Shown piece after piece: positions 17,745 through 55,481 of a stretch of 64,000 nt of DNA. The notes beneath the pieces were generated by a model. It was given only the letters and a program-made list of their open reading frames with translations. It was not told the DNA's origin and did not search any database. The translations under genes were made by a program, and so were the position numbers. Positions within the stretch are counted from its first letter, which is position 1. Each line of letters starts with the position of its first letter. The DNA comes from a virus: positions 32,001-96,000 of the IMG/VR virus record IMGVR_UViG_3300037483_001170; one strand, written 5' to 3'.

Positions 17745-18037
17745 GAAAGCCCCCACGTCGCCTCACGCGCCGAGACCGCCGAGTCGTGGATCACCTGCTG
17801 CGAGAGGCCATCGAGACCCGCCTCGAACATCGCGCGCAGCTCCGGATGATCACGCAACGCATCGGCCCGCGCGTGGCTCGGCCCTTCGAACAAAAGGGCG
17901 CAGATCTCACGCGCGACCTCCGCACGACGCTGATCGTCGCTGAGTCGGCGAAAACCGACGCCCCATCGCGTCGCCGCGCGAATCGCGCACTTGCGGCCAA
18001 CCGTTCGAAGCAGGTCGTGCGTATGTTCGGTGAGCAT
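17741..18037 (-). CDS. Hypothetical early protein
   Basis: First gene after promoter P1, with AAGGA RBS. Confidence 0.55.
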   Translation of the reverse strand: MLTEHTHDLLRTVGRKCAIRAATRWGVGFRRLSDDQRRAEVAREICALLFEGPSHARADALRDHPELRAMFEAGLDGLSQQVIHDSAVSAREATWGLS

Positions 18038-18053
18038 CTGAACGTTCCTTCCG

Positions 18054-18135
18054 GCCGGCATGGTCGCCAGCTCAACGAGCGTGATTCTAGTCAGCCATCG
18101 GTCGCTGTCAAGCGCCTAGCGCAACAAAGCGCAGC
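18054..18135 (-). promoter_or_regulatory. Early promoter P1 with upstream box and leader hairpin
   Basis: GCTGCGCTTTGTTGCG...TTGACA-16-TAGAAT...GCTGGC-GACCAT-GCCGGC. Confidence 0.75.
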
Positions 18136-18145
18136 AACGTCCGAC

Positions 18146-18481
18146 CTAGCGCCAGAAATAGATCGTCGAGTAGTTGCCCCCGGTCTTGCTCGCGAAGTTC
18201 GCCGCCGCCAGGATCTCCGCCGCGTCGCAGCACTTTCCGACGTCGCGCGTGGCGATGATGTCAAGCAGCACGCGCTTGGCCGAGTCGTGCAGCCAGCCCC
18301 CGTCGTCGAAGAGCAGGCTGGCAGCGGGTGACCGCGGAACATCGCGGTACGGGTCGCCGAGCGTTGGGCAGTTGCCTCGCGCGTCGAACAGCTCCGCCAA
18401 CCTCTTCGCGTCGTCCACGGCCTTCTCCTCAGCTTCGTGCTCGGCCCACTCGCGATGATGCCGCTTCTCTCGGCGGCTCAC
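18146..18481 (-). CDS. Hypothetical protein
   Basis: GTGA-coupled ORF. Confidence 0.5.
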   Translation of the reverse strand: MSRREKRHHREWAEHEAEEKAVDDAKRLAELFDARGNCPTLGDPYRDVPRSPAASLLFDDGGWLHDSAKRVLLDIIATRDVGKCCDAAEILAAANFASKTGGNYSTIYFWR

Positions 18482-18777
18482 GACTTCGCCGCCCGCTCGC
18501 CCATCAGCGGCATCACCGCCGCAGCGAAGCCCGCGTCCGTGTGCGTCTCGCGCTTCCGGATGCAGTCGGCTTCCGCTTGCTCCAGCGTGTCGCCGCCGCC
18601 GAACGTCTCGTCGCGGCGTCCGTGGGGACCGCGCGCCTTCGGCCTCAGCGTACGAACGCTGACCGTCCACGACGAACCGTCGCGCATGACGCCGAAGCGA
18701 ACCTCTACGTCCTCCGCGTTGCAGCCGAACGCAGCGGCCACGCGCTTGACGGTGGCGATGAACTTCTGATCCTTCAT
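18478..18777 (-). CDS. Hypothetical early protein
   Basis: First gene after promoter P2, with GGAG RBS. Confidence 0.6.
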   Translation of the reverse strand: MKDQKFIATVKRVAAAFGCNAEDVEVRFGVMRDGSSWTVSVRTLRPKARGPHGRRDETFGGGDTLEQAEADCIRKRETHTDAGFAAAVMPLMGERAAKS

Positions 18778-18790
18778 GACGCTCTCCCGA

Positions 18791-18846
18791 GCCAGCTTGT
18801 TGGCCGGCTTCCCAGCTCACACTAGCCATCGCCAGAACGGTGTCAA
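18791..18846 (-). promoter_or_regulatory. Early promoter P2 with leader hairpin
   Basis: TTGACA-16-TAGTGT...GCCGGC-CAACAA-GCTGGC. Confidence 0.75.
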
Positions 18847-18847
18847 G

Positions 18848-19372
18848 CTACTTACGCTCTTCTGGTTTTCCGCAGAACAGGCAGTAGTCGTGACACGTGT
18901 CTTCGTCATCGTCGTAGACGCACTTCGGAAGGGGGTTCTCCGCAGCCGGGCACTCGTGATAGCCCACGAAAGGGTTCTCGATCGATGCAGTCAGCTTCTC
19001 GACCGCCCGTGCGCCCAGGAGTGCGTACTGCTTGCTGCGCGCCTCACGGAGCCTCTCGATCTGAGCATCGAGCTTCGCGATGCGCGCGAGAAGCGCCGCA
19101 GCCTCTGCCGACGGGACACGACGAACAGCCGGCTCGCCGCGTCGCACACGCCGACCCGACAGCATCTTGCCGATCTTCTTGGCCAGCTCAGCGTGCAGAT
19201 CCCGATCGAGCACATCGCCAAGGCTGAGGCCGCCCCGCCCAAACGTGCCACTCGTGCGCGTCGTCCACCGACCGTCCGACCTCACCTGCACCTTGACGAG
19301 CGCGGCGTCGTCATCGCAGCGCGACACGAGAGCCCGGTACTTCACACCATCGTGCTGAACCTGCGAAATCAT
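18848..19372 (-). CDS. Hypothetical protein with C-terminal Cys/His zinc-binding motif
   Basis: HECP..CVYD..CHDYCLFCGKPEERK; start after GAGGAG. Confidence 0.65.
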   Translation of the reverse strand: MISQVQHDGVKYRALVSRCDDDAALVKVQVRSDGRWTTRTSGTFGRGGLSLGDVLDRDLHAELAKKIGKMLSGRRVRRGEPAVRRVPSAEAAALLARIAKLDAQIERLREARSKQYALLGARAVEKLTASIENPFVGYHECPAAENPLPKCVYDDDEDTCHDYCLFCGKPEERK

Positions 19373-19391
19373 GGTTTCCGCTCTCCTCTGA

Positions 19392-19472
19392 GCCAGCTTG
19401 TTGGCCGGCTTCAGCCAAGACAATAACACCTCCTCTCCGCGCGTCAAGCGTCAGACCACAACAGATCGCAGC
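19392..19472 (-). promoter_or_regulatory. Early promoter P3 with upstream box and leader hairpin
   Basis: GCTGCGATCTGTTG...TTGACG-16-TATTGT...GCCGGC-CAACAA-GCTGGC. Confidence 0.75.
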
Positions 19473-19796
19473 ACAGCCAAGACAGTATCCATGCCAGCGG
19501 CCGTCCACCTCATCGCCAATTTCATTACTAGCGGACGAGGCCGGCGCCTGGAGGGAGATTCCAGTAGTAGCCTGTAGGACAACGCGAAACCATTGGTTTT
19601 TTCTGCCATCGCCAGTTTCCGTGCCAGCCGGACAGGCCGAGCCCCAGCCCCTTCGGTGCTACCCGTGGTCGTCTGAAAACGGCGGGGCGTAGACGGGCGC
19701 TGGCGGGCGGCAATCCACGTGGTCACGTATGGTTATTCCAGAAGGCTCGATATACCTCTCTCTATGCACGAAACAGCATCTTGTTGGACCCCGCGC

Positions 19797-19852
19797 TTGA
19801 CACCGGTCTAACCATCGCTAGAGTCGTGGGGTGAGCCAGCAAACACGCTGGC
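19797..19852 (+). promoter_or_regulatory. Early promoter P4 with leader hairpin
   Basis: TTGACA-16-TAGAGT...GCCAGC-AAACAC-GCTGGC. Confidence 0.75.
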
Positions 19853-19869
19853 CGGACGGAAAGAGATAG

Positions 19870-20295
19870 ATGGCACAGTTCACCACGATCCAGTTCCGCA
19901 ACCGCTTGGGCGGCATCGAGTATCCGGGCTCGCGCGAGGAAGCGACCTTCCGCGGACCGGACCAGCACCGTGATGCCAGCGACGTGCTCGACCGGCTCGT
20001 TGCGTCTGACCCCGAGACGTGGGCAGATGCTGGTCTGACGCTCGTGACGCACGAGATCGACGATGCGGCGATCGCGACCGGCGCCGACGCACCGCTGCAT
20101 CCCGGGCACGCGGTCCTTCGCGTTCTGATCCCCGACACCGCCGCGAGACGCGCCTTCGTACAGAAGGCGTGTTCGGTTGCCGAGTGGTACCCGCCGCACC
20201 TCATCGCTGCCGTGGCCGAAGCGAACGGCCGCAAGCCGGTGAACGTGAGCCCCGAAGACGCGCGATCGGTGCGCGCCTTCATCGAAAGCATCTGA
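19870..20295 (+). CDS. Hypothetical early protein
   Basis: First ORF after P4, high GC3. Confidence 0.65.
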   Translation: MAQFTTIQFRNRLGGIEYPGSREEATFRGPDQHRDASDVLDRLVASDPETWADAGLTLVTHEIDDAAIATGADAPLHPGHAVLRVLIPDTAARRAFVQKACSVAEWYPPHLIAAVAEANGRKPVNVSPEDARSVRAFIESI

Positions 20296-20305
20296 GGAGA
20301 GTCTC

Positions 20306-20629
20306 ATGCACAACAACACGGACGAAGACAAGATCGCGTACCTCATCGTGAGCGAACCCGGCGGTGTGGACGGCCGCGATTCCGCGGACAAGGGCGGGCA
20401 CATCCACACGGCGACGTTCGACAAGACCACGGCCGAAGCGCTGCACAAGAAGCTCGGACCGGGCTGGTACCGCATCGACACGAAGATCGTCGTCGGCGTG
20501 GCCAAGTCGCGCGAGACCGCGATCAAGAAGCTCAGCGCGCTCGACCGGCTGCTCATCCTCGGCGAGAAGATCACCACGACCCGTCGCGCGGTTCGGGAGC
20601 GGGACCATTCGGAAGGGAACCGCGGCTGA
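20306..20629 (+). CDS. Hypothetical protein
   Basis: GAGGAG RBS, high GC3. Confidence 0.65.
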   Translation: MHNNTDEDKIAYLIVSEPGGVDGRDSADKGGHIHTATFDKTTAEALHKKLGPGWYRIDTKIVVGVAKSRETAIKKLSALDRLLILGEKITTTRRAVRERDHSEGNRG

Positions 20630-20634
20630 CGCCC

Positions 20635-20838
20635 ATGGCACACAACGAAGCGGACGACTACCGTCGAGCCGCCGCGCACTACCGGGCGTGGACGCGTGTC
20701 GACGGTCTGCACAGCGACGAGCACTACAGCCTGGTCATGACCATCGAGGAGATGGTGAAGATGGCCAAGCAGTGCGAGCGTCGCGATACTGCAACGGAAC
20801 GGTTTCTTGCCGGCGAAGACGAAAGCGAGGCTCCATGA
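20635..20838 (+). CDS. Hypothetical protein
   Basis: Operon-consistent small ORF. Confidence 0.55.
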   Translation: MAHNEADDYRRAAAHYRAWTRVDGLHSDEHYSLVMTIEEMVKMAKQCERRDTATERFLAGEDESEAP

Positions 20839-21254
20839 ACAAGACCGCAGAAACGACCGTCCCCGACTCCGACGACCTTGCGTGCTGGGCACGCCCTGGC
20901 GTTGGCGCGTCGCCGTTCATCATGCTCATCAAGCGTCTGCGAGAGACGCGTGGACTCGGACTGCTCGACGCGAAAGTCCTGGTCGAAGCCTGGCAGCAGT
21001 CGGGGGCATTGCCGTTCCGAACGGACGTGCCCGCCGTACCGACGCACGTCCAGCTTCTGACCGGTCACCAAGTGCTCTGCAAGCTGGTGTCAAACACGGC
21101 CAAGCGCCGAGACGTCATCCGCATCGGCTGCGACGACCTGCTCTCCGGCGTGTGGAGCGCTTACCATCTGAAGTGTGCGTCGAAAGCGTGCATCGGCCGA
21201 GAGCCGACCGTCGGTGAGATCGCCGCCGTACGCGCGTTCTTCGAATCGCTCTGA
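20835..21254 (+). CDS. Hypothetical protein with L7/L12 C-terminal-domain-like motif
   Basis: IMLIKRLRETRGLGLLDAKVLVE resembles bL12 IKxVRxxTGLGLKEAKxLVE. Confidence 0.55.
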   Translation: MNKTAETTVPDSDDLACWARPGVGASPFIMLIKRLRETRGLGLLDAKVLVEAWQQSGALPFRTDVPAVPTHVQLLTGHQVLCKLVSNTAKRRDVIRIGCDDLLSGVWSAYHLKCASKACIGREPTVGEIAAVRAFFESL

Positions 21255-21264
21255 CGGGAACCGC

Positions 21265-21321
21265 TTGACAGCGCTTCGGTCGTAGCTAGAGTGTTCTTCG
21301 TGAGTCGCCCAACACGGCGGC
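21265..21321 (+). promoter_or_regulatory. Early promoter P5 with leader hairpin
   Basis: TTGACA-16-TAGAGT...GTCGCC-CAACAC-GGCGGC. Confidence 0.75.
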
Positions 21322-21335
21322 CGGAGGGTGAGCGG

Positions 21336-21626
21336 ATGGCGAAGACGACGCACGAACAGGACATCGCGTGGCTCTGCGTCCAGGATGCCATGAAAGTGCT
21401 CGGAACGGGCTGGAACCACGTCAGCGACGACGTTCGCTGGGGTCTGGTCGCGTCGGAGATTCTCAGCGTCGTCGTCGGACAGTCGGCGCTGACCGACGAC
21501 GAGTACGCCACTGACAAGCGCCTCGGCGGCGTCGCGCTCTACACGCGAGAGCTGTGGCGCGTCGGCATGGCCATCAAGGACAACGGCTGGAAGCGTCCGT
21601 GGGCGGTCAAGGCGGTGAAGTCGTGA
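21336..21626 (+). CDS. Hypothetical early protein
   Basis: First ORF after P5, with GGAGG RBS. Confidence 0.6.
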   Translation: MAKTTHEQDIAWLCVQDAMKVLGTGWNHVSDDVRWGLVASEILSVVVGQSALTDDEYATDKRLGGVALYTRELWRVGMAIKDNGWKRPWAVKAVKS

Positions 21627-22573
21627 CGCTGCGTGGAACGTGCCCGGCGTGCTTCCGGGACATGCCGGTCGGTCAGGTCGTCGCAGGCCCCGTGATGACG
21701 CGCCACGGCTGGCAGGAACAGGGCGGTCGCCAGGTCGGCGTGTACGGCCAGGCGTGGCATGCGGGTCAGTGCTTCGGCGTCGGCTGGACGCCGTTCGAAC
21801 TCAGCACAGCGGGCACCGTCGCGTTCATCACGCAGGTTCTCTTCCCGCGTGCTCTCACACAGGAGAACGCACTCGCGCATCTCGCGACGCGGCCCCCGCT
21901 CATCATCGACTTCGAGAACGAGGGCTATCTCCCGGGCTCGTCGCTGGTCGGAAAGTCGCGGGAGAAGTACAAGGCGCCGTACCAGGCCCGACTCGTGGAC
22001 GGCTTCCCGGGCGCACCGCGCACGACCCTCTACGTCGGCAACGAGAGCATCTACCTCGTCGGCCTTTCGTCGTACCAGGATGCGCTTCAGAGCGAGATCG
22101 ACCAGCATCGGGCTCTGCTCGGCTCGTTACGGCGCGAAGCGCTCGACTGCTTCGCCGCCATCTCCACGTGGAAGCTCGGGGAGCTTCGCGACGAAGAGCG
22201 CGTTCCGACGCGGCACTACAAGAACGAGGGCGCGCGGGTGCCGTTCTGCGGCTCACGGAGCCACGGCATCTTCTCGACCGACGACGAGTCCATCGTGACG
22301 TGTTCACGGTGCAAGAAGGCGCTCGATGCGGACAAGGCCCTAGCCGCCAAGAACGCGCAGGTGCGAGCGGACAGCGCCGCGCTCACCGAGTGGCTCACGA
22401 AGCTCGGCAAGCACGCCAAGATCGCCGAGATCAAGAAGGGACTCGGATGGGACACCAAGCGCATCAACGCGGCGTTCGACGTGGCGCGGCGCGCGAAGAA
22501 GGCGGATCACACCTTCTGGCTCGGCAACGCAACGGGGACGTGGTACTTCGCGCCGCCGCTGGTGCGAACGTGA
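21623..22573 (+). CDS. Hypothetical protein with zinc-binding motifs
   Basis: GTCPACFR..HG..C; H..CG..VTCSRC. Confidence 0.7.
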   Translation: MTLRGTCPACFRDMPVGQVVAGPVMTRHGWQEQGGRQVGVYGQAWHAGQCFGVGWTPFELSTAGTVAFITQVLFPRALTQENALAHLATRPPLIIDFENEGYLPGSSLVGKSREKYKAPYQARLVDGFPGAPRTTLYVGNESIYLVGLSSYQDALQSEIDQHRALLGSLRREALDCFAAISTWKLGELRDEERVPTRHYKNEGARVPFCGSRSHGIFSTDDESIVTCSRCKKALDADKALAAKNAQVRADSAALTEWLTKLGKHAKIAEIKKGLGWDTKRINAAFDVARRAKKADHTFWLGNATGTWYFAPPLVRT

Positions 22574-22583
22574 GGAGCGCGCG

Positions 22584-22796
22584 ATGAAGATCACGTCCGC
22601 AGACGAGAAGTACGTGCACATCATGCTCACCCAGTCGCCTGGGAAGCGGCGCGATCGCGCGATCGCAGAGCTGCTACGTCAGTCGGCCATCGCCATCGGC
22701 GAGGCGTGCGAATGCGGCTCGACGGACGTCGAGGAAGGCGCGCCGGGCCAGTACCGGTGCTGCGACTGCGACACGCGATGGGGACGGCACGAATGA
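22584..22796 (+). CDS. Small zinc-ribbon protein
   Basis: CECG...CCDC. Confidence 0.55.
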   Translation: MKITSADEKYVHIMLTQSPGKRRDRAIAELLRQSAIAIGEACECGSTDVEEGAPGQYRCCDCDTRWGRHE

Positions 22797-22999
22797 CCCA
22801 GAGCGCGAACAAGGCGCACCCCAAGCGCGTCGTCCTGACCGCGGCCGCGCTCGGCGCGATGAACTCCGCAGTCTCCGCTGCGCTTTCCGGCGAAGAGGGC
22901 GAAGGCGACTGCGCCGACGTCACGTTTGCCGACCTCGAACGTGCGCAGGACTGGATTCACGCCGAATACGCCAGGCGCGCGAAGAGGCGGCGCGTCTGA
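22793..22999 (+). CDS. Hypothetical protein
   Basis: ATGA-coupled ORF. Confidence 0.5.
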   Translation: MTQSANKAHPKRVVLTAAALGAMNSAVSAALSGEEGEGDCADVTFADLERAQDWIHAEYARRAKRRRV

Positions 23000-23085
23000 C
23001 AGCGCTGCGCTTTGTTGCGTCCGCTGCTTGACAGCGTACTGGCACATCGCTAGGATGGATCGAGTGAGCCGGCAAACACGCTGGC
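22994..23085 (+). promoter_or_regulatory. Early promoter P6 with upstream box and leader hairpin
   Basis: GTCTGAC-N3-GCTGCGCTTTGTTGCG...TTGACA-17-TAGGAT...GCCGGC-AAACAC-GCTGGC. Confidence 0.78.
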
Positions 23086-23096
23086 CGAGGAGACGG

Positions 23097-23444
23097 ATGA
23101 TGAGCAAGAACCGACGCGTGGTGGTCTACGACTTCTCCTGGGACGACCAGGGTGATCTGGGCCTGTGGGTCTTCGACGGGCGCGAGGAAGTGCTCGTGGA
23201 GGCCATGGAGCGCATCTCGACGGAGGTCGAAACGCGCTACAACCGTCTCGGAGAGCCCAGCGGCGAGTACACGCTCGTCTCGGGCAAGCTACCGGAGGGC
23301 GCTGGCGTGCTGCTCCCGGGCGCGGCGAAGCCCGTCTTCGGCGTGGCCGCGGAGAGCGCGTGGGATCGCCTCGTGCGCGCTTCGCATGAGGGCGCGATGG
23401 TCGATAACGGTCGCGGCGTCGGCGGCATCGAGAGGGCGTCGTGA
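23097..23444 (+). CDS. Hypothetical early protein
   Basis: First ORF after P6, with GAGGAG RBS. Confidence 0.6.
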   Translation: MMSKNRRVVVYDFSWDDQGDLGLWVFDGREEVLVEAMERISTEVETRYNRLGEPSGEYTLVSGKLPEGAGVLLPGAAKPVFGVAAESAWDRLVRASHEGAMVDNGRGVGGIERAS

Positions 23445-23788
23445 GCAGCAACCTGGAAGACGTCGCCTGCTTCGTCGCCGTGCTCGCGCGCTACGCGCCG
23501 GCCGCGAAGCCTGCACAACTGATCGCGCGTGAGGCGCTCGCGATTCGCGATGATGCGGCTCGCCTGCACGCGCTCGCGGAGCACGAGTGCAACCGTGGGC
23601 TCACGGCGCAAGAGACCGCGCGCGAGCAGCGCATCCAGCAGCGTGTCGTCGCGGTGCTCGCCGAGTACGGGGTCACGCCCGACAACATCCGCTTCAACGG
23701 CGACCCGCGTGGGGCGGCGCTCAAGATTCGCTTCAAGAACGGCGAGACCCACGGCGACTTCGGCGGCGAAGGGCTCTGGTGCGTCTGA
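23441..23788 (+). CDS. Hypothetical phage protein
   Basis: LAEHECN...FNGDPRGAALKI, coupled ORF. Confidence 0.65.
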   Translation: MSSNLEDVACFVAVLARYAPAAKPAQLIAREALAIRDDAARLHALAEHECNRGLTAQETAREQRIQQRVVAVLAEYGVTPDNIRFNGDPRGAALKIRFKNGETHGDFGGEGLWCV

Positions 23789-24045
23789 TGAGCGACACAA
23801 CCCCCATCGCGCTCATCGAGCGCCTCGCGGCTCGCATGGGCGTCTCCAAGCACCGCATCAACCTGGACTTCCGCATCTACTCGGAAGAGGACGGCGGCCC
23901 CTCCTGGAGCATCTACGCGTCGATCCCGCAGAAGGACAAGCGCAAGGTCGACAGGACGCTGCACGCGGGCGGGCCGACGCTCGACGAAGCCGAGATCGAG
24001 ATGCTGGAGACGTTCAGGCGCATGCAAGAGCGCGGAGAAGCCTGA
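23788..24045 (+). CDS. Hypothetical protein
   Basis: TGATG coupling. Confidence 0.55.
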   Translation: MSDTTPIALIERLAARMGVSKHRINLDFRIYSEEDGGPSWSIYASIPQKDKRKVDRTLHAGGPTLDEAEIEMLETFRRMQERGEA

Positions 24046-24410
24046 TGGACAAGACGCCGAAGCCGATCGCGGCCGATCCGTATCTCAGCACCGATCGGAC
24101 CGTACGCCGCGCGCTCATCCTCGACCAGGCGCGCGGCACGACGCTGGATCTGATCTCGGGGACCGCGAAGTGGGTCCGCAGCAGATTTCGAGATCTGGAA
24201 CAGGATCTCCGCGAGATAGCCACCAGCGGCGCCGTCGATGCGAGCGATCTCATCCGCCAGCTGGCCTGCCTGCAAGGGCTGACGCATCAGCTCCACGCAC
24301 AGAACACGGCGATGCTCGTGCTCTACGATCTGGCCACCGAGTGGCCGGCGGACGTCGAAGTCACGGTGCCTGCGTACACGGACTTCGTCCCCACGGAGAA
24401 GTCCACTTGA
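24045..24410 (+). CDS. Hypothetical protein
   Basis: TGATG coupling. Confidence 0.55.
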   Translation: MDKTPKPIAADPYLSTDRTVRRALILDQARGTTLDLISGTAKWVRSRFRDLEQDLREIATSGAVDASDLIRQLACLQGLTHQLHAQNTAMLVLYDLATEWPADVEVTVPAYTDFVPTEKST

Positions 24411-24820
24411 GCGACTTCTACGAGAAGCGGGCCGCCGAGTACGAGAAGCGGTGGCAGGACGAGATCGCCGCCGGCAAGATCGTGCGCGCGGAGCGCGACG
24501 AGGCTCGACGCCTGCTGCGGCTCGCCGAGGCGACGCGCATGGAGGTCGACCGTGTTCACGCCGAGGCCGGCGCGCCGTACGGAACGCCAGCCGACACGCG
24601 CGAGCTGGTGAAGCGTGTCATCGCATCGTGCGACGGCGACGGGCACACTTCGGTTCCGCAGACGTTCTGGGTGCTCAAGCACCAGAGCGGCCTGTACATG
24701 AGGGACGGGCAAGGAGGCCCCGTCAGCAAGCCGCTCGATGCTGCGGCGTTTCACGTCAAGCCCGTCGCTCCCAGCGACTACAAGGTCATGCGCGTCTGCG
24801 TCTACGAAGAGGAGGACTGA
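24407..24820 (+). CDS. Hypothetical protein
   Basis: TTGA-coupled start after GGAG. Confidence 0.5.
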   Translation: MSDFYEKRAAEYEKRWQDEIAAGKIVRAERDEARRLLRLAEATRMEVDRVHAEAGAPYGTPADTRELVKRVIASCDGDGHTSVPQTFWVLKHQSGLYMRDGQGGPVSKPLDAAAFHVKPVAPSDYKVMRVCVYEEED

Positions 24821-24967
24821 CGTGCACTTCTGCACCGACGAAGCGCTCGCGCTCGCTGCGGCCGTGCCGATCATCGGCTTCGCGCTCCGTATGGGGCTCA
24901 CGAGCCTGATCGGGCTCTACCGCCAGGCACGCACGCGGGTCACGCAGTTCCTAAACGGGAGAGACTG

Positions 24968-25642
24968 ATGAGCTACACCATCAATCACTGGATCCTCATC
25001 AACGGCGGCATCGAGGAGGTTGCCTGGGCACACACCCTGGCCACGCAGATCTTCCCGCCCGAGCAGGTCTCGGCCGTCCTACGCGCGGCCATCAACTACG
25101 GAGGCTACCTCAGCGTCGCACCAGACGGCAGCAAGGAGGGCTGGGACGTCTCGGACGATTTCGATCGGCGCCGAGCCGAGTTCATGGCCTCACTGCTCGT
25201 CGGCCGGCTGCTACATGACCATGTCATGTCGTGGACCGTCTTCGGGCTCGGTGAAGACGGCGAGGGGCCATCGATCATGGAGTACCACGACCCCCTGTTC
25301 TACGCGCTGCTCGAAGGCGAGCCCGTTCACGAGTACCACAACCTGACGCTCGCCCACGCGCTCACGCCTCTCGACATCCTCGTACCCGGACGGGAAAACG
25401 AGCGATGGCGCGGGTGCGTCAAGGCGCGGGTGGCCGCGATGTCAGACGCGGCCACAGGTCTAGTCGAGATCGTCTCGGCCGAAACAATGGTGCTAGCCAA
25501 GCTGCTCGATGCTCCCGACAAGTACGGAGCCATCGGCACGCCCGACAAGCTCAGCACGGGTGCGCGCGCGTTCTACGACGAACTCCTCGCCGATGCGCAT
25601 CACGCCTTTCCCGGCGCTCACGCGAGCGTCCGATTCCGATGA
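24968..25642 (+). CDS. Hypothetical phage protein
   Basis: APDGSKEGWDVSD motif, GGAG RBS. Confidence 0.65.
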   Translation: MSYTINHWILINGGIEEVAWAHTLATQIFPPEQVSAVLRAAINYGGYLSVAPDGSKEGWDVSDDFDRRRAEFMASLLVGRLLHDHVMSWTVFGLGEDGEGPSIMEYHDPLFYALLEGEPVHEYHNLTLAHALTPLDILVPGRENERWRGCVKARVAAMSDAATGLVEIVSAETMVLAKLLDAPDKYGAIGTPDKLSTGARAFYDELLADAHHAFPGAHASVRFR

Positions 25643-25872
25643 CCGCACGCTCCACCACCGTCGTCCACGCCGGCCGGACGTGGCTCGTAGAGCTTCCGCC
25701 GGTCACGAGCCGGCACGAGTGCCCCCGCGTCGACGGGACGCCGGCTGACGACCCCGAGGACGTCCGGATGTTCGCGTACAAGCTCGGCGACCGCTGGCAC
25801 TCGCCGGGCTACACGCACCCGGGGCTCGCTGCGGCGTTCAACACCGCGATCGGCGCGCTCGAAAGCAGCTGA
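25639..25872 (+). CDS. Hypothetical protein
   Basis: ATGA-coupled ORF. Confidence 0.5.
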   Translation: MTARSTTVVHAGRTWLVELPPVTSRHECPRVDGTPADDPEDVRMFAYKLGDRWHSPGYTHPGLAAAFNTAIGALESS

Positions 25873-25873
25873 C

Positions 25874-25956
25874 TGTCAGACAATCTTGCGCCCTGCCACT
25901 TGCACTCGGTCGGTGGCGTGCTACATTGATTTCCGTTGAGCCCGCCGACAAGCGGG
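25874..25956 (+). promoter_or_regulatory. Early promoter P7 with TGTCAGACA site and leader hairpin
   Basis: TGTCAGACA...TTGCAC-16-TACATT...CCCGC-CGACAA-GCGGG. Confidence 0.7.
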
Positions 25957-25973
25957 ACGAGGAGCGAGAGACC

Positions 25974-26270
25974 ATGGAGCGGACAAGCGACGACCTGGAG
26001 GCGGATGCGATCTTCGAGGAAGAAGATCGCGAAGACGAAGAGCGCCAGATGGAGCGGTACCTGCCGTTCGAGCGGCTCGTCGAAGAAGAGAAGTCCATGC
26101 GGGCGGAGATCATCGCGCTCCGGCGCCATGTGAGGCGGCTGGAGCGCGAGAAGGCCGCGCTCATGGGCAGCTGGCTCGCGGCTACCGAGCGCGCCAGTAG
26201 TAATATGCTGCTGGCAGCGCTCGCCGGTGCCTTCGACCAGAAGCCAGAAGCCGGAAAGGAGGGCGCATGA
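25974..26270 (+). CDS. Acidic coiled-coil hypothetical protein
   Basis: First ORF after P7, with GAGGAG RBS. Confidence 0.6.
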   Translation: MERTSDDLEADAIFEEEDREDEERQMERYLPFERLVEEEKSMRAEIIALRRHVRRLEREKAALMGSWLAATERASSNMLLAALAGAFDQKPEAGKEGA

Positions 26271-26470
26271 CGACGTACGCCGCGCGCGACCTGTTCCTCT
26301 ACGTGAAGGGCAGGCTCATCACCGCCCAGTCGTTCTCGCTCGTCCTCTCAGACAACGGCATCACCATCAAGCTGCCGAGCGGTACCGAGGTCACCGACTA
26401 CGACCTGGACACTGCCATCAAGGTGGCCAACCACGTCCTCACGGAAGCCGGAAAGGTGGAAGCGCCATGA
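26267..26470 (+). CDS. Hypothetical protein
   Basis: AGGAGG RBS, coupled. Confidence 0.55.
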   Translation: MTTYAARDLFLYVKGRLITAQSFSLVLSDNGITIKLPSGTEVTDYDLDTAIKVANHVLTEAGKVEAP

Positions 26471-26769
26471 GCACGTCGAAGACCCTCGGTAACGCCGAGC
26501 CAACCGATGCCGAGCGCCAGCGGATGATCGTCGTTCTCGACGGTCTCCGGGAGCGGTTGTTCAACGCTCGTGGCAGCAGGTTCCATCCCGCAGCCTTCAA
26601 CGAGGACGACGGCACGGTCGAGCTTCGCCATGTCGATGGTGGCCGAGCCTTGATCTCGGCCTGGATCCACGGCGAGGGCAGCAGCCGTGCGCTGCTCGTG
26701 TGGCGTCATCCGACGTACCGCTACGAACAGGATGACGCGTACCTGCACGCGGCGAAGGTGACGAAGTGA
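26467..26769 (+). CDS. Hypothetical protein
   Basis: ATGA-coupled ORF. Confidence 0.5.
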   Translation: MSTSKTLGNAEPTDAERQRMIVVLDGLRERLFNARGSRFHPAAFNEDDGTVELRHVDGGRALISAWIHGEGSSRALLVWRHPTYRYEQDDAYLHAAKVTK

Positions 26770-28226
26770 CCGCCCCGCACTTCGAGGTCGACCGCGTCGG
26801 CCTCCGCAAGCTGCTCGCCCGGCGCGGCATCGAGTTCGCGGCGCTGGAGCTGCTTCAGAACGCGCTCGACGAGAAGTCGACGTGCGTGCACGTGAAGCTC
26901 GAACCGCACGCGACGCGCGGCTCGTACGTGCTCACGGTCGCGGACGACAACCCCGATGGCTTCGCCGACCTGCGTCACGCCTACACGCTCTTCGCGGAGT
27001 CGGCCAAGAAGGGCAACCCCGAGCAGCGCGGCCGCTTCAACCTCGGCGAGAAGCTGGTCATCGCGGCGGCCACGCATGCGGAGATCGTGACCACGACGGG
27101 TCACATCGTCTTCGATGAAGACGGCCGTCGCAGCCAGCGCAGTCGCACGGAGTCCGGCAGCGTCGTCACCGCGCGCCTGCGCATGACGAAGGATGACGTC
27201 GAACGCACCGAGCGCGCGCTTCGCACCGTGCTCGTGCCGCCGGATGTCGTCGTGACGCTGAACGGGGGGCGCCTGCCGTCGCGCATCATGCAGGCCTCGT
27301 TCGAAGCGCGACTGGCCACTGAGATCGCCGACGACGATGGCTACCTCAGGCCGACCGAGCGCCTCACGCGCGTGAACCTCTACCCCGTCGAAGGTGGCGA
27401 GACGCCCACGCTCTACGAGATGGGCATCCCGGTCGTCACGCTCGACGGTGCATGGCACGTCGACGTCTGCCAGAAGGTTCCGCTCAACACCGACCGCGAC
27501 AACGTCACGCCCGCATACGCGCGGCGCATCCGGGCGCTGGTCGTCAACGAGATGCACGGTCAGCTCGGCGAGCACGCGAAGGCTGCGTGGGTCGACGACG
27601 CCATCGAGAGCAAGCTCGTAAGCGACGAGGCGGTCACGGCCGTGCTCACCGAACGCTACGGCGAGCGGCGCGTCATCCGCGACCTGAACGACCCCGAGGG
27701 CACCAAGCTCGCGATGAGCAAGGGGTACTCGATCATCGAGCCCGGCAGCTTCTCGGGGCCAGCCTGGGAATCCATCCGCCGAGCAGGAGCTGCGCTACCC
27801 GCCGGCAAGGTCACCCCGAGCCCGAAGGTCGTGTTCTCCGCTGGTGGCGAGGACGTCAGCGTGGATCCGAGCACGTGGAGCGCGGGCATGCGCCGCGTCG
27901 TCGACTTCACCGATGCACTCGGCCCGAAGCTGCTCAACGGCGTGCGAATCCGCGTCGACATCGTCAACGACCCGAGGGGCTACGCCGCGTGCTTCGGTGA
28001 CGGCACGCTGCTCTTCAACCTGCGCCGTCTCGGTCGCGTGTGGTTCGAGAAGGGGCCCCTCGACGAGGAAGTGCTCCAGCTCATCATTCATGAGGTCGGA
28101 CATTTCTACGTTTCAGATCACCTCAGCGAGGGCTACCACGACGCGCTGTGCAAGCTCGGAGCGCGCCTCAGCCGCCTTGCACTCGACGAGCCCGCGTTCT
28201 TCTCGCGCTGGCGGTGGGCGTCGTGA
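26766..28226 (+). CDS. GHKL (HATPase_c) ATPase with C-terminal HExxH motif
   Basis: ELLQNALD, VADDNPDGF, RGRFNLGEK, GSVVT; IIHEVGH...H...YH. Confidence 0.8.
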   Translation: MTAPHFEVDRVGLRKLLARRGIEFAALELLQNALDEKSTCVHVKLEPHATRGSYVLTVADDNPDGFADLRHAYTLFAESAKKGNPEQRGRFNLGEKLVIAAATHAEIVTTTGHIVFDEDGRRSQRSRTESGSVVTARLRMTKDDVERTERALRTVLVPPDVVVTLNGGRLPSRIMQASFEARLATEIADDDGYLRPTERLTRVNLYPVEGGETPTLYEMGIPVVTLDGAWHVDVCQKVPLNTDRDNVTPAYARRIRALVVNEMHGQLGEHAKAAWVDDAIESKLVSDEAVTAVLTERYGERRVIRDLNDPEGTKLAMSKGYSIIEPGSFSGPAWESIRRAGAALPAGKVTPSPKVVFSAGGEDVSVDPSTWSAGMRRVVDFTDALGPKLLNGVRIRVDIVNDPRGYAACFGDGTLLFNLRRLGRVWFEKGPLDEEVLQLIIHEVGHFYVSDHLSEGYHDALCKLGARLSRLALDEPAFFSRWRWAS

Positions 28227-28479
28227 CCCGGGGACGTCTATACGTCGACCGAGTCGATGACCTGCCGGATGATAACGCGCCGAAGGCCCGCTCGCCGATG
28301 AGCGACAAGACCGCCCTCGCGACGGAAGAGCGGATGACCGCGGAGTGCATCGCCCTGAAGAAGCAGATCGAGAAGCTCCAAAGGAAGTACTCGCTGCTCT
28401 CCAGCAAGCGCCTGAAGTTCATCTACAAACACGACATGTTCAACGTCCGTGCACGGGCGCTCGGACTCCCGGAGAAGCC

Positions 28480-28749
28480 GTGAGCCACTACCACTACAAC
28501 GCGATCGCGGCGCTGGTCGGCGTCTATCCGGCGGAGGACCTTCGCGCGCTCGAAGTCTTCTTCGAGGAGCAAGAAGAGACCGGCGACTACGACAACATGG
28601 ACAACGTCCGCGTCGCGCGCAGCGCCGACGTCGTGCAATGCGGAGTGTACTGGGCTGCCGAAAACGACGGCTGCTGCGGCAGCTTCGACGACGTGTTCAC
28701 GGCTCCATCGGGTGCCAAGTACCTCGTCGGCTTCAACTACGGACACTGA
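28480..28749 (+). CDS. Hypothetical phage protein
   Basis: DNVR...GCCGSFD...VGFNYGH. Confidence 0.6.
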   Translation: MSHYHYNAIAALVGVYPAEDLRALEVFFEEQEETGDYDNMDNVRVARSADVVQCGVYWAAENDGCCGSFDDVFTAPSGAKYLVGFNYGH

Positions 28750-29028
28750 CCATGCGCATTCATCACAAGCATCCGGACGTCCGATGGCTTCCGAACGGGC
28801 GCTGGATACTCAGCGTCCGTGAAGCCGGTCGCATCACACACTGGGGCGGCTACACGTCCGCGAGCGGCGAGCACCTGGCAGACGGCGTCTGCGCGTCCTG
28901 GCCCGTCGCGCACCGCAAGCAGGGCCGAGGTCTCGGCGCGCGCAAGCGCCGCATGCGCGAGGCTCGCGCACAGCGCGCGGCATGCACGCGCCAGCAACAG
29001 GGATGGCGCTAGCAGCGCAAGGCGTGCG

Positions 29029-29090
29029 GTCTGACACCGCTGTGCTTTGTTGCGCGCGCGCTTGACAGCGCGCTCGTGTGAACTCAGAAT
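29029..29090 (+). promoter_or_regulatory. Promoter with upstream box but no leader hairpin
   Basis: GTCTGAC-N3-GCTGTGCTTTGTTGCG...TTGACA-17-CAGAAT. Confidence 0.65.
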
Positions 29091-29116
29091 CCGGCAACTC
29101 GTTGATCCTTCTGCGA

Positions 29117-30922
29117 ATGGATGAGGCCACAGTGAAGAAGAAGGCAGCGCACGTTCGGCGCCCGGTGACCAAGGCGGCTTCGAAGAAGCTGCCCGCCATG
29201 ATCTCCGGCAAGGGCTGGAAGATCGCCAACATCCACGCGCACGCAGAGTGCGTGCTGGTGATCACGAGCGAGGCGTTCTTCAACAAGATCAACTCGTGGG
29301 ACAGCGACGTGCTCCCGTACCAGCAGCGCTGGCAGCTCAAGGAGTGCGGACAGGCCGCGATTTCGCTGAGCGCCGTCCTGGGAAGTCACCGCTACGCGGA
29401 CCTGAAAGAGGCCGAGCCCGCGTTCGCGGTCGCCATCGGCCGCGTTGCCGGGCTGCGTCGCGCGGTGATCGACAAGCTGGTCGCGACTGACGCGCCGGTC
29501 CCGTTCGCACTCCTCGCCGAAACACTCGCGCGTTACAAGGGGCAACCGATTGTCCTGCACGTCCACGGCGCAGAGCTTGCCGTGACGATGGTCCATGCGA
29601 CGGACGTCTACGAGTTCGGCAGCAGAAGCGTCGTCGTCGAGTACAATGTGCTGCATTGGATGCCGGGCTGCAATCAGCTCGCATGGGGCATCGGCCGTCG
29701 CAGCTTCCACGAATACACTGAGCCGCAGACGATCTCCCGACTGGGCATCGACACGTCGCTGTCGACCGCAACGCGAGAACGGCTGATCGCACGCGGGCGA
29801 CGTGCATGCGACCTCAACGCCACCACGGCGTACGTCCACCTGGACTCGACCATGCAGCAGAAGCTCTCCTGGGCGTGGCACGACGTGGCAATGGCCCGTG
29901 GCCGCGTCGTCGTCGATCCGACGGGTCACGCGATGATCGATGCACACGACAGCATGAGCGACCTGGAGGGCCTGCCAGAACGGGACCGCACGGACGCCAT
30001 GCTCGACCACACGACGCTCACGGCCGCTCAGGCGCTGTGCGTGGAGCCCTGGCTGACGGTGTTCTCGTTCTCCGCGAAGAAGTGGGGTCGCACCTCGGTC
30101 GACAGGGTCTCGCTGATCAAGTTCCGGGACGATGCATTCGAGAAGCTCGTGCTGCCCGCGGCCGACAAGCGGCTGGTCATGGCCCTCGTGCAGCACACGC
30201 AGGCTGCGGACGTGTCGGACATCATCGACGGCAAGGGCGGCGGATGCTCGCTGCTGTTTCACGGTGAGCCGGGCAGGGGCAAGACGCTCACCGCTGAGGC
30301 GGTCGCAGAAGACCTGCGCAGGCCGCTCTACGCCTTCGGCGTCGGCGAGCTGGGGACCGACCCGCAGGGCCTCGAACGGAAGCTGCACTCCGTGCTCCAG
30401 ATCGCCGAACGCTGGAACGCGGTGCTGCTCCTCGATGAGGCCGACGTCTTCCTCGAAGCGCGTGCGGATGGCGACGTCGATCGCAACGCGATGGTCACGA
30501 CGTTCCTGCGCCTCATCGAGTACTACAACGGCGTACTGGTCTTGACGACGAACCGCGTTCGCAACATCGACAAGGCGTTCTACTCGCGCCTGAGCCTCGC
30601 CATCCAGTTCGAGGACTTCACGCTGGAGTCGCGGCAGCAGGTCATCCGGAACCTGCTGAGCGCGAACGGCGTGACGCTCAGCGACGACGAGATCTACGCG
30701 CTCGGCGAGATGGGCGTGAACGGGCGGCAGATCAAGAAGGCCATCATCGGCGCGCGCAGCCTCGCCCGGTCCGAAGGGCGTCCCGGCGTCATCAGTAACG
30801 CGGACGTCACCGAGCTGCTGAATCGGCTTCGCGACTTCGGGGCCGACAAGGACGGCGCAGAGCGCGGCGGGCCGAGCTGCAACTGGCGCGGGCACGTCAC
30901 CGACGCGAACGGCGTCCAGTAG
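29117..30922 (+). CDS. AAA+ ATPase
   Basis: Walker A GEPGRGKT, Walker B LLLDEAD, sensor 1 LTTNR, Arg finger AFYSRL. Confidence 0.92.
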   Translation: MDEATVKKKAAHVRRPVTKAASKKLPAMISGKGWKIANIHAHAECVLVITSEAFFNKINSWDSDVLPYQQRWQLKECGQAAISLSAVLGSHRYADLKEAEPAFAVAIGRVAGLRRAVIDKLVATDAPVPFALLAETLARYKGQPIVLHVHGAELAVTMVHATDVYEFGSRSVVVEYNVLHWMPGCNQLAWGIGRRSFHEYTEPQTISRLGIDTSLSTATRERLIARGRRACDLNATTAYVHLDSTMQQKLSWAWHDVAMARGRVVVDPTGHAMIDAHDSMSDLEGLPERDRTDAMLDHTTLTAAQALCVEPWLTVFSFSAKKWGRTSVDRVSLIKFRDDAFEKLVLPAADKRLVMALVQHTQAADVSDIIDGKGGGCSLLFHGEPGRGKTLTAEAVAEDLRRPLYAFGVGELGTDPQGLERKLHSVLQIAERWNAVLLLDEADVFLEARADGDVDRNAMVTTFLRLIEYYNGVLVLTTNRVRNIDKAFYSRLSLAIQFEDFTLESRQQVIRNLLSANGVTLSDDEIYALGEMGVNGRQIKKAIIGARSLARSEGRPGVISNADVTELLNRLRDFGADKDGAERGGPSCNWRGHVTDANGVQ

Positions 30923-37854: not shown

Positions 37855-38163
37855 CTAGAGCCAGCGGAGAATCCTCTCCGAGTGCTCCGGAAGTGTCGCC
37901 CGGACGTGCGTCGCGAAACGGCTGACCGCCGCGGCGCGGCTCGGCAGACGGTCACGCGCCGGCTTCGCCGTCATCAGCAGCGCCACCGCCAGATCGACGT
38001 CCAGCTTCTCGAAGTCGAGCGCGCGCAACGTACTGTCGACTTCCGCGAACTCGCCATCGCCCAGAGCATCGTCGAGCGCGCCCATCGCAACATCGAGACC
38101 GCGGTGGACCTCCCCGTCCGCTGCCAGGTGCTGCGCATACGCGATGTGGTCGACGAGCTTCAT
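37855..38163 (-). CDS. Hypothetical protein
   Basis: ATGA-coupled to NAMPT. Confidence 0.6.
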   Translation of the reverse strand: MKLVDHIAYAQHLAADGEVHRGLDVAMGALDDALGDGEFAEVDSTLRALDFEKLDVDLAVALLMTAKPARDRLPSRAAAVSRFATHVRATLPEHSERILRWL

Positions 38164-39566
38164 CCTTCCGACGCGCGCCGCCTAACGTCCGCGAATGTCT
38201 GGCGCCGCAGCACCTCGCCGTTGCGGAAGACCGGCTCCAGCAGCGTCTGGCTCTGCGCTGTCTGACCGCGGAGTATGACGTCCTGCGGCACGGTCATGAA
38301 CTCGCCTGCGTCGTTCCGCACGAGCGCCAGACGGCCGGCTTTCGACTTCTTACCCGGATCGGTGATCGGGTCCTTCAGCACGTCGCGCCACTCGCCATTC
38401 ACCTGAATCGCGGAGCACTTGATCGCGCACTTCTGCGTGTCGCGGTTCACCTTCTGAAGAAGACCGCCGCCGGAACCGAACGCGACGTTGTCCGCGGACC
38501 ACCCGTTCGCGGTCATCGCGCTGAGGATCTTGCAGATCATCTCGAAGTCGATGCCGTCGCCCTGGATCACGCGCACGTGCGGATCCAGCACCTTGAAGCC
38601 CTTCGCGTTCGTCGAGAAGCCGAAGCGCTCGCCCAGGATGTTCAGCACCTCGCACACGACTGCGACCGGGGGACCGCTGTCGGGGCGGATGACCAGGCAG
38701 CCGTCGCGGGCGAGGACGCGGTCACGCAGCTGCGTGCCCCACAGGTCGCGGCACGCTGCGTAGATGTCGTAGCTGTCTGACACGCACGCGACGAGACCGG
38801 TCGGGAACTGATCGAGCAGGTTCCGATACGCGTCGACCTCGTGCTCGCGACCCCAGGACGTGATCGTGCTGTGCTCGCTCGCCGGAATCGAGTGGCCACC
38901 CATGGGCTCCTCGTAGTAGTCAGCGAGCAGATCCAGCGCAGGCGTCGTATCGGTGCCCCTGAAGCTGGTCATGTGAGCCGCGCCTCCGATAGCGGCCGAC
39001 TCCACCGACGTGCTCCCACGGAAGCCGAAGTCATGGACCTTGTAGTCGATCAGCCCAGGGTCTCCCGTACGTTCTAGCGCGCCCAGCACGAGCTTGTGCA
39101 TCGCGCGGCTCTGCGATGCGACCGTCATCGGGTACCACACCATGCTCTTGAGTGTTTCGAGCCAGTTCGACAGCCACGGCACATGCGGATCTGTGTTGCA
39201 GATGGTCATCATCACGTTGCGCGTCGGAACGACCGTACCTTCAGGCACGGCGCAGATCTCGACCGGCAGTCGACCACCGTGCTTCTCGATGATGTACCTC
39301 CAACCGTCCACATTGAAGATCCTGTCAGTTCCGAGATGCGCTGCCCAGAACCGCTCCGCCCTTTGCAGGTCAGCTGGCGTAACAACGACGCCCTCAAAGT
39401 ACTCCATCAGGTAGTACTGAAGTCCGAAGAAGACGGTCTCCGGGAACACGCCGCCACGGCTCTCGAAGAACGAGTAGACATGCTCCGCACCAGGCGGGAG
39501 CTGACGATGATGGCTCGCCTTGTACGAGTCGGTGGCCGTCAGGAGATTCAACCGTTTCATGCTCAT
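38160..39566 (-). CDS. nadV: Nicotinamide phosphoribosyltransferase
   Basis: TDSYKASH, HDFGFRG, FRGTDT, PASEHS, VSDSYD, IRPDSG, IQGDG, FGSGGGLLQKVNRDT, KKSKAG. Confidence 0.96.
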   Translation of the reverse strand: MSMKRLNLLTATDSYKASHHRQLPPGAEHVYSFFESRGGVFPETVFFGLQYYLMEYFEGVVVTPADLQRAERFWAAHLGTDRIFNVDGWRYIIEKHGGRLPVEICAVPEGTVVPTRNVMMTICNTDPHVPWLSNWLETLKSMVWYPMTVASQSRAMHKLVLGALERTGDPGLIDYKVHDFGFRGSTSVESAAIGGAAHMTSFRGTDTTPALDLLADYYEEPMGGHSIPASEHSTITSWGREHEVDAYRNLLDQFPTGLVACVSDSYDIYAACRDLWGTQLRDRVLARDGCLVIRPDSGPPVAVVCEVLNILGERFGFSTNAKGFKVLDPHVRVIQGDGIDFEMICKILSAMTANGWSADNVAFGSGGGLLQKVNRDTQKCAIKCSAIQVNGEWRDVLKDPITDPGKKSKAGRLALVRNDAGEFMTVPQDVILRGQTAQSQTLLEPVFRNGEVLRRQTFADVRRRASEG

Positions 39567-39726
39567 CCTCCATTCAACCATTCAACCATCTAGCTGTCGT
39601 AGGCCGACTGACCTGAGGGCACTGCCGAAGTCCGTCGCAACGACGAAGTGTCGACGTGAACACCTCGTCGTCCGCCAGCCTCCACTGTCGCCAGCAGCTC
39701 TTCCAGCTCAGCTCGTGCAGCAATGC

Positions 39727-40621: not shown

Positions 40622-41281
40622 ATGAAAACGTTCGATCCTCAAGACATTGTCGGCTCTCAGTGCAACGCTCTCAGGATCCTCGCGTTGTCCAAGAAAGTGC
40701 CTAGGGCCAACCATCCTGGCGACTACATCTACTTCTATTCATGCCTCTGCGAATGCGGCGTAACCGTCGAAAAGCGCCGAGGCAACTTGGTTACGCACCA
40801 CGTTTACTCCTGTGGCTGTAGACGTCGCCGTAGCGGCAACAAAAGTCCGTGTTGGACCGGCCACGGCGAGATCAGTCGACGCTTGTGGACACACATCGAA
40901 CGCCACGCAAAGGATCGTGGCCTCGCGTTCTCGGTATCTATTGAAGACGCCTGGGCCAAGTTCGAGCAGCAAGGCAGAAGGTGTGCGCTTAGCGGCGTCG
41001 CTCTGAGCATGACACTCCACAAGGCCGCGTATGCCATGCGAACCGCGTCCCTTGATCGCATTGACAACGCCAAGGGATACACGACCGGTAACATTCAATG
41101 GCTGCATAAGGATGTGAACCGGATGAAGGGCGCGTTTTCTACGGACCGATTTATCGAACTCTGTGTATCCGTTGCGATTCACCCTCCTCAGGCGTTCACG
41201 GTGCCCGACGCAAACGTCGCCGCCGATGAGAGCGTAACCGGTCGCATCACCACCACCGCTCGCGCGCGGCATGCACGCTGA
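40622..41281 (+). CDS. HNH-type (homing-endonuclease-like) protein, antisense within the NAD operon
   Basis: CLCECG..SCGC N-terminus; CALSG, ASLDRIDNAKGYTTGNIQWLHKDVNRMKG; lower GC. Confidence 0.85.
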   Translation: MKTFDPQDIVGSQCNALRILALSKKVPRANHPGDYIYFYSCLCECGVTVEKRRGNLVTHHVYSCGCRRRRSGNKSPCWTGHGEISRRLWTHIERHAKDRGLAFSVSIEDAWAKFEQQGRRCALSGVALSMTLHKAAYAMRTASLDRIDNAKGYTTGNIQWLHKDVNRMKGAFSTDRFIELCVSVAIHPPQAFTVPDANVAADESVTGRITTTARARHAR

Positions 41282-44190: not shown

Positions 44191-44193
44191 GAG

Positions 44194-55444: not shown

Positions 55445-55481
55445 CGCGATCCTCCGGCGAGCGCCCAGCTCGCGCCCGAGA

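Follow-up and report, generated by a model that had tools for sequence, protein, structure and literature searches.

The stretch of DNA analysed here, which we call the window, spans 64,000 nucleotides and corresponds to bases 32001–96000 of a 106,780-bp IMG/VR virus record (IMGVR_UViG_3300037483_001170; 64.8% G+C, completeness rating 47%). Between positions 18,052 and 25,959, the window holds seven cassettes in which a sigma-70-type promoter of the form TTGAC(A/G)-16/17-TAnnnT precedes a small leader hairpin, a Shine-Dalgarno (SD) sequence and a start codon. An earlier note on this DNA had listed seven stem-loops here, each behind such a promoter, and we confirmed all of them in position and sequence. 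A consensus scan of the 14–30 kb part of the window found 7 promoter-like sites against 1.1 expected, and 7 of the 8 credible promoter-like sites in the window carry the hairpin in register. Hairpins that satisfy a loose grammar are far from rare on the two strands of the window (n = 45); seven of them share a single 5-nt register behind promoters, and a chance origin of this arrangement is excluded. The sole promoter of this class without a leader hairpin is a strong one (TTGACA-17-CAGAAT, 29062–29090) that stands before an AAA ATPase gene.

Three of the cassettes are on the minus strand. The promoter of cassette 1 is TTGACA-16-TAGAAT at 18084–18111, and its hairpin, GCTGGC-GACCAT-GCCGGC, occupies 18052–18074 (upper stem and loop 18054–18071) with a 2-bp lower stem and a bulged A, ahead of an ATG at 18037. 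Cassette 2 combines TTGACA-16-TAGTGT (18819–18846) with GCCGGC-CAACAA-GCTGGC at 18789–18811 (18791–18808), in which a G-C/A-U lower stem and a bulged A precede the ATG at 18777, and cassette 3 has TTGACG-16-TATTGT (19420–19447) with the same upper stem and loop, GCCGGC-CAACAA-GCTGGC, at 19390–19412 (19392–19409), where the lower stem may reach 4 bp (CUGA/UCAG), again with a bulged A, and the ATG is at 19372. The other four cassettes are on the plus strand. Cassette 4 has TTGACA-16-TAGAGT at 19797–19824 and GCCAGC-AAACAC-GCTGGC at 19832–19854 (19835–19852), with lower stem and bulged A, before an ATG at 19870; cassette 5 repeats the promoter hexamers TTGACA-16-TAGAGT at 21265–21292, followed by GTCGCC-CAACAC-GGCGGC at 21301–21323 (21304–21321) and an ATG at 21336. 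In cassette 6, a terminator-like hairpin (22987–23008) lies upstream of TTGACA-17-TAGGAT (23028–23056), and GCCGGC-AAACAC-GCTGGC at 23065–23087 (23068–23085) leads to an ATG at 23097. Cassette 7 has a weaker promoter, TTGCAC-16-TACATT (25902–25929), and a hairpin with a 5-bp upper stem, (G)CCCGC-CGACAA-GCGGG(A), at 25937–25959 (25941–25956), before an ATG at 25974.

Together with the copies found elsewhere in the record and in two relatives, described below, 26 hairpins form a gap-free alignment. The order from 5′ to 3′ is −10 hexamer, 2-bp lower stem, bulged base, 6-bp upper stem, hexaloop N-R-A-C-A-H, the 3′ arms, SD and start codon. The earlier note had reported a 6-nt loop with invariant C4 and A5, and this holds in 27 of 27 copies; 24 of 26 copies have a purine at loop position 2, the other two being GCACAT loops with C there, and 25 of 26 have A at position 3. 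The loop-closing pair of the upper stem is C-G in every copy, and the unpaired bulge base is A in 23 of 26. The lower stem and the bulge, which were missing from the earlier note, were recovered independently by RNAalifold. Single-copy stem energies range from −10 to −15 kcal/mol, and the conserved hairpin has no U-tract. We rejected a seventh pair between loop positions 1 and 6, which would be a G-U pair in only 8 of 26 copies.

The upper stem begins 8–12 nt after the −10 hexamer (mode 10), closer than the 10–14 nt given in the earlier note, whereas the adjacency to the SD described there stood, with the SD core beginning 2–6 nt past the structure and the start codon 11–19 nt past the stem. 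Transcription would start 6–8 nt past the −10 hexamer, and the lower stem would then lie 0–4 nt from the mRNA 5′ end. Of 24 promoters, 19 have a purine at position 8 after the hexamer. Just two copies lack the outermost pair, precisely those with the shortest (8 nt) distance, in which the base concerned would fall at or before the start, a suggestive sign that the hairpin is 5′-terminal.

To look beyond the window, we built a covariance model from the 11 promoter-linked copies of the record. On the 107-kb record, this gave 12 matches at 21.9–41.6 bits, with the next best at 15.3 bits, whether filters were on or off. The 11 promoter-linked copies scored 24–41.6 bits, and four of them are cassettes upstream of the window, with −35 boxes at record positions 8371, 10484, 13124 and 17308. 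The twelfth copy (GCGCGC-GGACAT-GCGCGC, L055:4262–4301, 21.9 bits) also lies outside the window, is promoter-less and is placed after a stop codon and ahead of the SD of a gene that encodes a ParB-like helix-turn-helix (HTH) protein. Relatives were found through a 316-amino-acid protein encoded in the operon behind the 21265 promoter, by aligning its homologues and searching contig collections with the alignment. By this marker, the closest loci are L064, a 12.7-kb contig (50% amino acid identity), and L065, at the end of a 259-kb contig (47%). The scan of genome and relatives with a covariance model, as the earlier note had proposed, thus brought the total to 27 copies: 12 in the record, 7 in L064 and 8 in L065. 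Of these, 26 stand behind a promoter; 11 of the 12 strong promoters of the record bear the hairpin, as does every strong promoter in the L064 and L065 stretches.

In more distant relatives, at 34–39% amino acid identity (L057, L058, L066 and others), the homologous genes follow sigma-70-like promoters, yet the hairpin is absent. The highest-scoring model matches there (at most 20.5 bits) lie inside coding sequence, as does a match in L081 (21.5 bits with model R1). Presence in the two closest relatives and absence at 34–39% identity therefore indicate that the element was invented in one clade. When IMG/VR was scanned for exact occurrences of two hairpin consensus patterns, one gave 48 chance matches, none of them near a promoter, and the other 0, and neither single-protein locus searches in IMG/VR nor an alignment search of genome contigs returned a match. 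On these sequences, the hairpin appears confined to a small clade of large, high-GC uncultured phages, represented by three phages at about 50% amino acid identity.

The earlier note had held that the stem sequence changes while pairing is kept, and with the relatives added this became solid. In the upper stem of the 26 copies, 98.1% of 156 cells are standard pairs, and five of the six pairs are doubly changed, in 19 cells; including the lower stem, 95.2% of 208 cells pair and seven of eight pairs are doubly changed (33 cells). None of 500 column shuffles matched the observed pairing or covariation score, a control that overstates independence somewhat, the copies in one genome being paralogues. 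Sliding the partner by 1–3 columns lowers pairing to 14–47%. There are 17 distinct stem versions among the 26 copies. Pairwise identity is 0.37 for the 16-nt promoter spacers and 0.67–0.72 for the arms and loop; because the spacers are near random while arms and loop are not, the copies are old and the hairpin is under selection, rather than a set of recent duplicates. The orthologous leaders at window 21304–21321 and L064:3291–3330 differ by two bases and share the same 5′ arm, although the proteins downstream are only 44% identical, which we likewise count for selection rather than duplication.

On sequence evidence, the hairpin is a genuine cis-acting RNA signal in sense orientation and not a DNA operator, as the earlier note had also argued. 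All 27 copies are co-oriented with the downstream gene, with the asymmetric ACA of the loop always in the sense strand, and the wobble-capable non-Watson-Crick cells of the upper stem comprise 20 G-U and 0 A-C in that strand; read on the other strand, the 20 G-U pairs would be 20 mismatches. A repressor dimer closing early promoters by binding an inverted repeat at about +3 to +23 would find here an imperfect palindrome of 18 bp whose half-site centres are about 12 bp apart, in the classic repressor position over the start site, much as in lac O1. The half-sites, however, vary among sites yet change jointly within each (hence the 17 stem versions), and a homodimeric DNA-binding protein would not demand joint changes in the two arms, nor would it account for wobble cells that are all G-T on the sense strand or for an ACA centre that always faces the gene. 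A plausible real operator of the same genome, by contrast, has invariant half-sites: the perfect palindrome TGTCNGACA, with 13 copies against 1.08 expected (window 9267, 9299, 14442, 14474, 25874, 30213, 38774, 46757, 49622, 53511, 55826, 56054 and 58031), is likely to mark a DNA operator regulon. Because the arms covary site by site, G-U pairs occur in the sense strand only, the ACA faces the gene and the contrasting palindrome keeps its half-sites fixed, we read the hairpin as RNA and give an operator hardly any credence. A template-strand promoter hairpin of the N4 type, which has a 3-nt loop and a transcription start about 11–14 nt downstream, was also rejected; the loop here is 6 nt, and on the template strand the G-T cells would become A-C mismatches. 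The transcription bubble would not accommodate a non-template hairpin of the ops-like kind.

Among readings that accept an RNA, one is a passive 5′ hairpin that shields the 5′ end, insulates the SD from upstream RNA or limits backtracking, with a sequence that nothing reads and a loop fixed by common descent. The 0–4 nt distance from the inferred 5′ end, the stable stems and the known stabilising effect of 5′-terminal stem-loops all suit it. Such a hairpin has no need, however, for an exact 6-nt loop with C4-A5, a C-G closing pair, a 6-bp stem and a bulged A across three phages, nor does it explain why stems and promoter spacers vary freely while loop and bulge stay; we consider it unlikely. 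A hairpin that loads a factor on RNA polymerase for processive antitermination, as lambda and P22 boxB or the leader hairpin of the NusG paralogue LoaP do, would be expected in the promoter-proximal leader, where the present one is. The P22 boxB loop sequence, GACAA, is present in six of the loops, several promoters have a terminator-like hairpin with a GCTTTGTTGCG tail ahead of them, and one copy lies inside an operon, as nutR does. Set against this, there is no boxA and at most about 5 nt of RNA ahead of the hairpin, the loop is a hexaloop instead of a GNRA-like pentaloop, the stem differs, and terminator-like sites are not enriched (10 found, 7.7 expected). Promoters recur every 0.6–3 kb, so read-through would add little, and the sole antiterminator-like match, to phrog_6060, is not credible. 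Of the three roles of antitermination, stability and translation, boxB/put-type antitermination is thus the one we favour least, and as an explanation of the hairpin it seems distinctly improbable. The hairpin could, finally, have no role of its own and be carried along in a mobile regulatory cassette of terminator, promoter, hairpin and SD that is kept as a recombination substrate for shuffling early genes, in the manner of PeSL units. The repeated units do lie in ORFan-rich regions, the combination of hairpin type and orthologous gene differs among the three phages, terminator-like tails lie upstream of several −35 boxes, and a contig from the source sample joins 19825 to 21298, running from the −10 end of one cassette to just past the next −10 and skipping a 1.5-kb operon, weak evidence with 30 nt on one side. 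Recombination needs identity, not pairing, and therefore predicts no compensatory changes; moreover, the spacers between the promoter hexamers are near random, and the PeSL stem-loop lies upstream of its promoter with a terminator role (PMC4122927). Cassette shuffling may occur as a side effect, whereas a hairpin without any role is very hard to credit.

We favour instead, as a reading that we regard as about evenly poised between right and wrong, a 5′-terminal leader hairpin that heads transcripts of the host RNA polymerase, presumed early, shields the mRNA end and is docked by a protein reader near the ribosome site. Its function is put forward by analogy with known leaders. The paired 5′ end would hinder entry of RppH and RNase E and so prolong mRNA life, as in the ompA and papA leaders; that 5′-terminal base pairing protects from 5′-end-dependent decay is covered in a review (PMC3997798) that lists Emory, Bouvet and Belasco (1992). 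The hexaloop, the ACA, the closing pair, the 6-bp stem and the bulged A are fixed over three phages at about 50% protein identity and are not explained by geometry, and they therefore argue for a reader. It would dock at the invariant loop, bulge and closing pair, carried on a variable stem, which lends support to the protein-recognised leader that the earlier note had proposed; the reader would most likely be phage-encoded, possibly an Aca-type HTH regulator. Bound 2–6 nt from the SD, it would lie inside the 30S footprint and could therefore set translation of the whole early regulon, switching it in one step with mRNA decay following. T4 RegA and RegB perform the same regulon-wide task on unstructured sites (PMC3014915). 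More tentatively, and with somewhat less than an even chance in our view, the hairpin could be a regulon-wide tag: a dedicated phage protein of a family not recognised as RNA-binding would read the bulged A and ACA loop on all host-polymerase transcripts and time the early-to-middle switch, protecting and activating these transcripts first and silencing them later. If so, it would be one case of a wider, undescribed habit of large phages, in which lineage-specific 5′ hairpins mark early mRNAs.

Several observations weigh against a 5′-terminal, protein-read leader. Its presumed 5′-terminal position is deduced from promoter geometry, and the copy at L055:4262–4301 is promoter-less, so a 5′ end is not needed for every copy. 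Single-sequence folding energies are unremarkable for the G+C content (z −1.8 to +0.2), a measure that is uninformative at this GC content, and the paralogy of copies within a genome, noted above, tempers the covariation statistics. Pfam returned no significant family for twenty products of hairpin-led operons, including 10 of the 12 genes directly behind a hairpin, and PHROGs gave no credible match for the ten of these products compared with it. Nor did we find an inverted repeat overlapping the promoters, unlike in Aca systems (spacers 37% identical, no common repeat).

The same searches bear on which protein the reader might be. No HTH family exceeded threshold among the 20 early products, which therefore include no recognisable Aca-type small HTH or ribbon-helix-helix gene; the best HTH match was a weak one to MqsA-HTH (E = 0.02, window 25974–26270), below threshold and not credible. 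An Atlas search of one product returned no credible RNA-binding or HTH protein. The phrog_6060 (Q-like) match already mentioned (E = 4.5e-4) covers 36 residues of a CxxCxGxG zinc-finger protein, and there was no N or Q family match of weight among the early-operon products, although N proteins are too short and too diverse for such a comparison to exclude one. Readings in which CsrA, Hfq or MazF acts on the hairpin were dropped, the loop having neither a constant GGA nor ARN repeats and the geometry being unsuited.

The element is real and absent from Rfam. At gathering thresholds, Rfam 15 gave 0 matches in the 64-kb window, and at E ≤ 5 the region 17900–26100 gave only two unrelated chance matches, away from the hairpins, in keeping with the earlier note, which had not recognised it as a named family. 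Literature searches turned up analogues (Aca, stabilisers, nut, PeSL, SAS/ESAS) but nothing with this structure. The closest documented parallel is with the Aca1 and Aca2 motifs in 5′ untranslated regions (UTRs). Aca1 binds an RNA inverted repeat, about 20 nt long, that directly follows the transcription start and comprises a lower stem, unpaired bases and an upper stem that covaries; Aca2, on binding its leader hairpins, blocks the ribosome-binding site, and Aca motifs occur on several neighbouring operons and also between genes inside operons (PMC13551039). By description, the hairpin here is alike in its lower stem, unpaired base and covarying upper stem, in serving several operons per genome and in its occasional intra-operon copy, and its place directly past the transcription start, as inferred from the promoter, agrees as well. 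It differs in loop, bulge and stem lengths, and in heading at least 12 operons per genome, compared with 1–3 for Aca.

The ompA and papA leaders, with a hairpin a few nucleotides from the mRNA 5′ end and upstream of the SD, fit the geometry, but such stabilisers need no particular loop, bulge or stem length, all of which are fixed here across three phages. The T7 phi10 leader is also a 5′-terminal stabiliser stem-loop. Like the nut sites of lambda and P22, whose hairpins are read by a phage protein, the element is a small promoter-proximal leader hairpin, with GACAA in some of its loops; it lacks a boxA and has a hexaloop and a bulged A, an SD-adjacent position and a copy at nearly every promoter, whereas nut boxB has a stem of about 5 bp and a GNRA-like pentaloop. 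Bulge and loop also resemble the coat-protein operators of MS2 and PP7, in which a protein dimer near the ribosome site recognises a 5′-side bulged A and a loop adenine at a fixed distance while the stem is free in sequence. This is a resemblance only: 6 bp separate bulge and loop here, as opposed to 2 bp in MS2 and 4 bp in PP7, and phage type and protein are unrelated.

Two further systems share the repetition of the motif. PeSL cassettes of T4-type phages are repeated sigma-70-like early promoter units with a stem-loop and SD in ORFan-rich regions, with hints of shuffling (PMC2839356, PMC4122927), but the PeSL stem-loop is an upstream terminator (PMC4122927), whereas the conserved hairpin here lies downstream of the −10, in the transcribed leader. 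The start-associated sequences (SAS) and extended SAS (ESAS) of Cluster K mycobacteriophages are multi-copy motifs at the translation starts of non-structural genes, ESAS being an inverted repeat just upstream (PMC3203893). They differ in that ESAS has 17-bp arms of conserved consensus around a variable spacer and is not tied to promoters, and in that SAS is a 13-bp sequence that includes the SD.

Phage early genes house host takeover and anti-defence functions, and the timing of their expression is known for few model phages. A clade of phages in which almost all early promoters bear one covarying RNA structure, with a fixed loop and bulge that demand a reader, offers a clean case. Finding that reader would reveal a new pair of RNA and recognising protein; it would also allow early genes, candidates for anti-defence roles, to be flagged in uncultured phage genomes, and would supply a compact 5′ leader for designing expression in high-GC bacteria. 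Seen alongside the recent Aca1 and Aca2 results, the hairpin suggests that control by 5′-UTR hairpins is commoner in phages than databases show.

The gene setting is that of a phage. Recognisable genes of the record encode nicotinamide phosphoribosyltransferase (NAMPT), a NUDIX-domain protein, an RNA ligase, a cREC_REC protein, an AAA ATPase, and SNF2-type and UvrD-type helicases. A tblastn search with the AAA ATPase found only distant Rhizobium phages, with about 45% protein identity, as the nearest named phages, one of which carries a homologue of the NUDIX-domain gene annotated as NadM-Nudix. The early region of phage B1VFA is without these promoters, and megablast of the region against GenBank phages gave no match. 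This DNA occurs in sediment and soil metagenome runs only, with no RNA run listed among them; in contigs from three DNA runs, no usable variation was seen at the hairpins. Judging from the 259-kb contig of the relative L065 and the completeness estimate of 47%, these genomes may reach about 200 kb or more. We take the hairpin-led transcripts to be early because their promoters are of the host type and their genes are small ORFans.

Several other features lie around the cassettes. Upstream of the weak −35 box of the promoter at 25902, the TGTCAGACA palindrome copy at 25874–25882 is about 59 nt from the inferred transcription start, a typical activator position, and related GTCNGAC cores occur in the loops of terminator-like hairpins that precede other promoters. 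A GCTG(C/T)GCTTTGTTGCG motif, probably an intrinsic terminator tail, is found about 10 nt upstream of the −35 in several cassettes, often after a short GC hairpin (window 18120–18140 on the minus strand, 23005–23020 and 29040–29055; L054:8345–8360; L065:985–1010 on the minus strand). The 259-kb relative has the motif too. With such a terminator included, the complete unit would run terminator, promoter, leader hairpin, SD and resemble a PeSL composite. The joint between 19825 and 21298, weak evidence as it is, may reflect cassette-mediated gene shuffling in a related strain. Just upstream of two rightward hairpin promoters, a gap-free non-coding repeat of about 211 bp occurs at window 19557–19767 and L054:8120–8330, 88% identical between the two sites. 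Its substitutions fall in blocks that look partly complementary and its read depth is raised in the source run; a structured RNA and an origin-like element are both possible.

Further from the cassettes, the window encodes an NAD salvage pair (NAMPT and the Nudix protein), an Rnl-type RNA ligase and a 559-amino-acid protein with a cREC_REC domain, known from RNA-repair systems (38160–39581, 41247–42179, 43327–44193 and 53822–55501). Outside the window, L055:6364–9507 (record 26264–29407) encodes a 1047-amino-acid UvrD-like helicase in which Hint and intein-splicing domains lie between the helicase halves, an intein. At L054:14935–17283, also outside the window, neighbouring genes carry a PEP-utilising mobile domain and a PPDK_N ATP-binding domain; the pair resembles a split phosphoenolpyruvate (PEP) synthase or a rifampicin-phosphotransferase-like enzyme, which is unusual in a phage.

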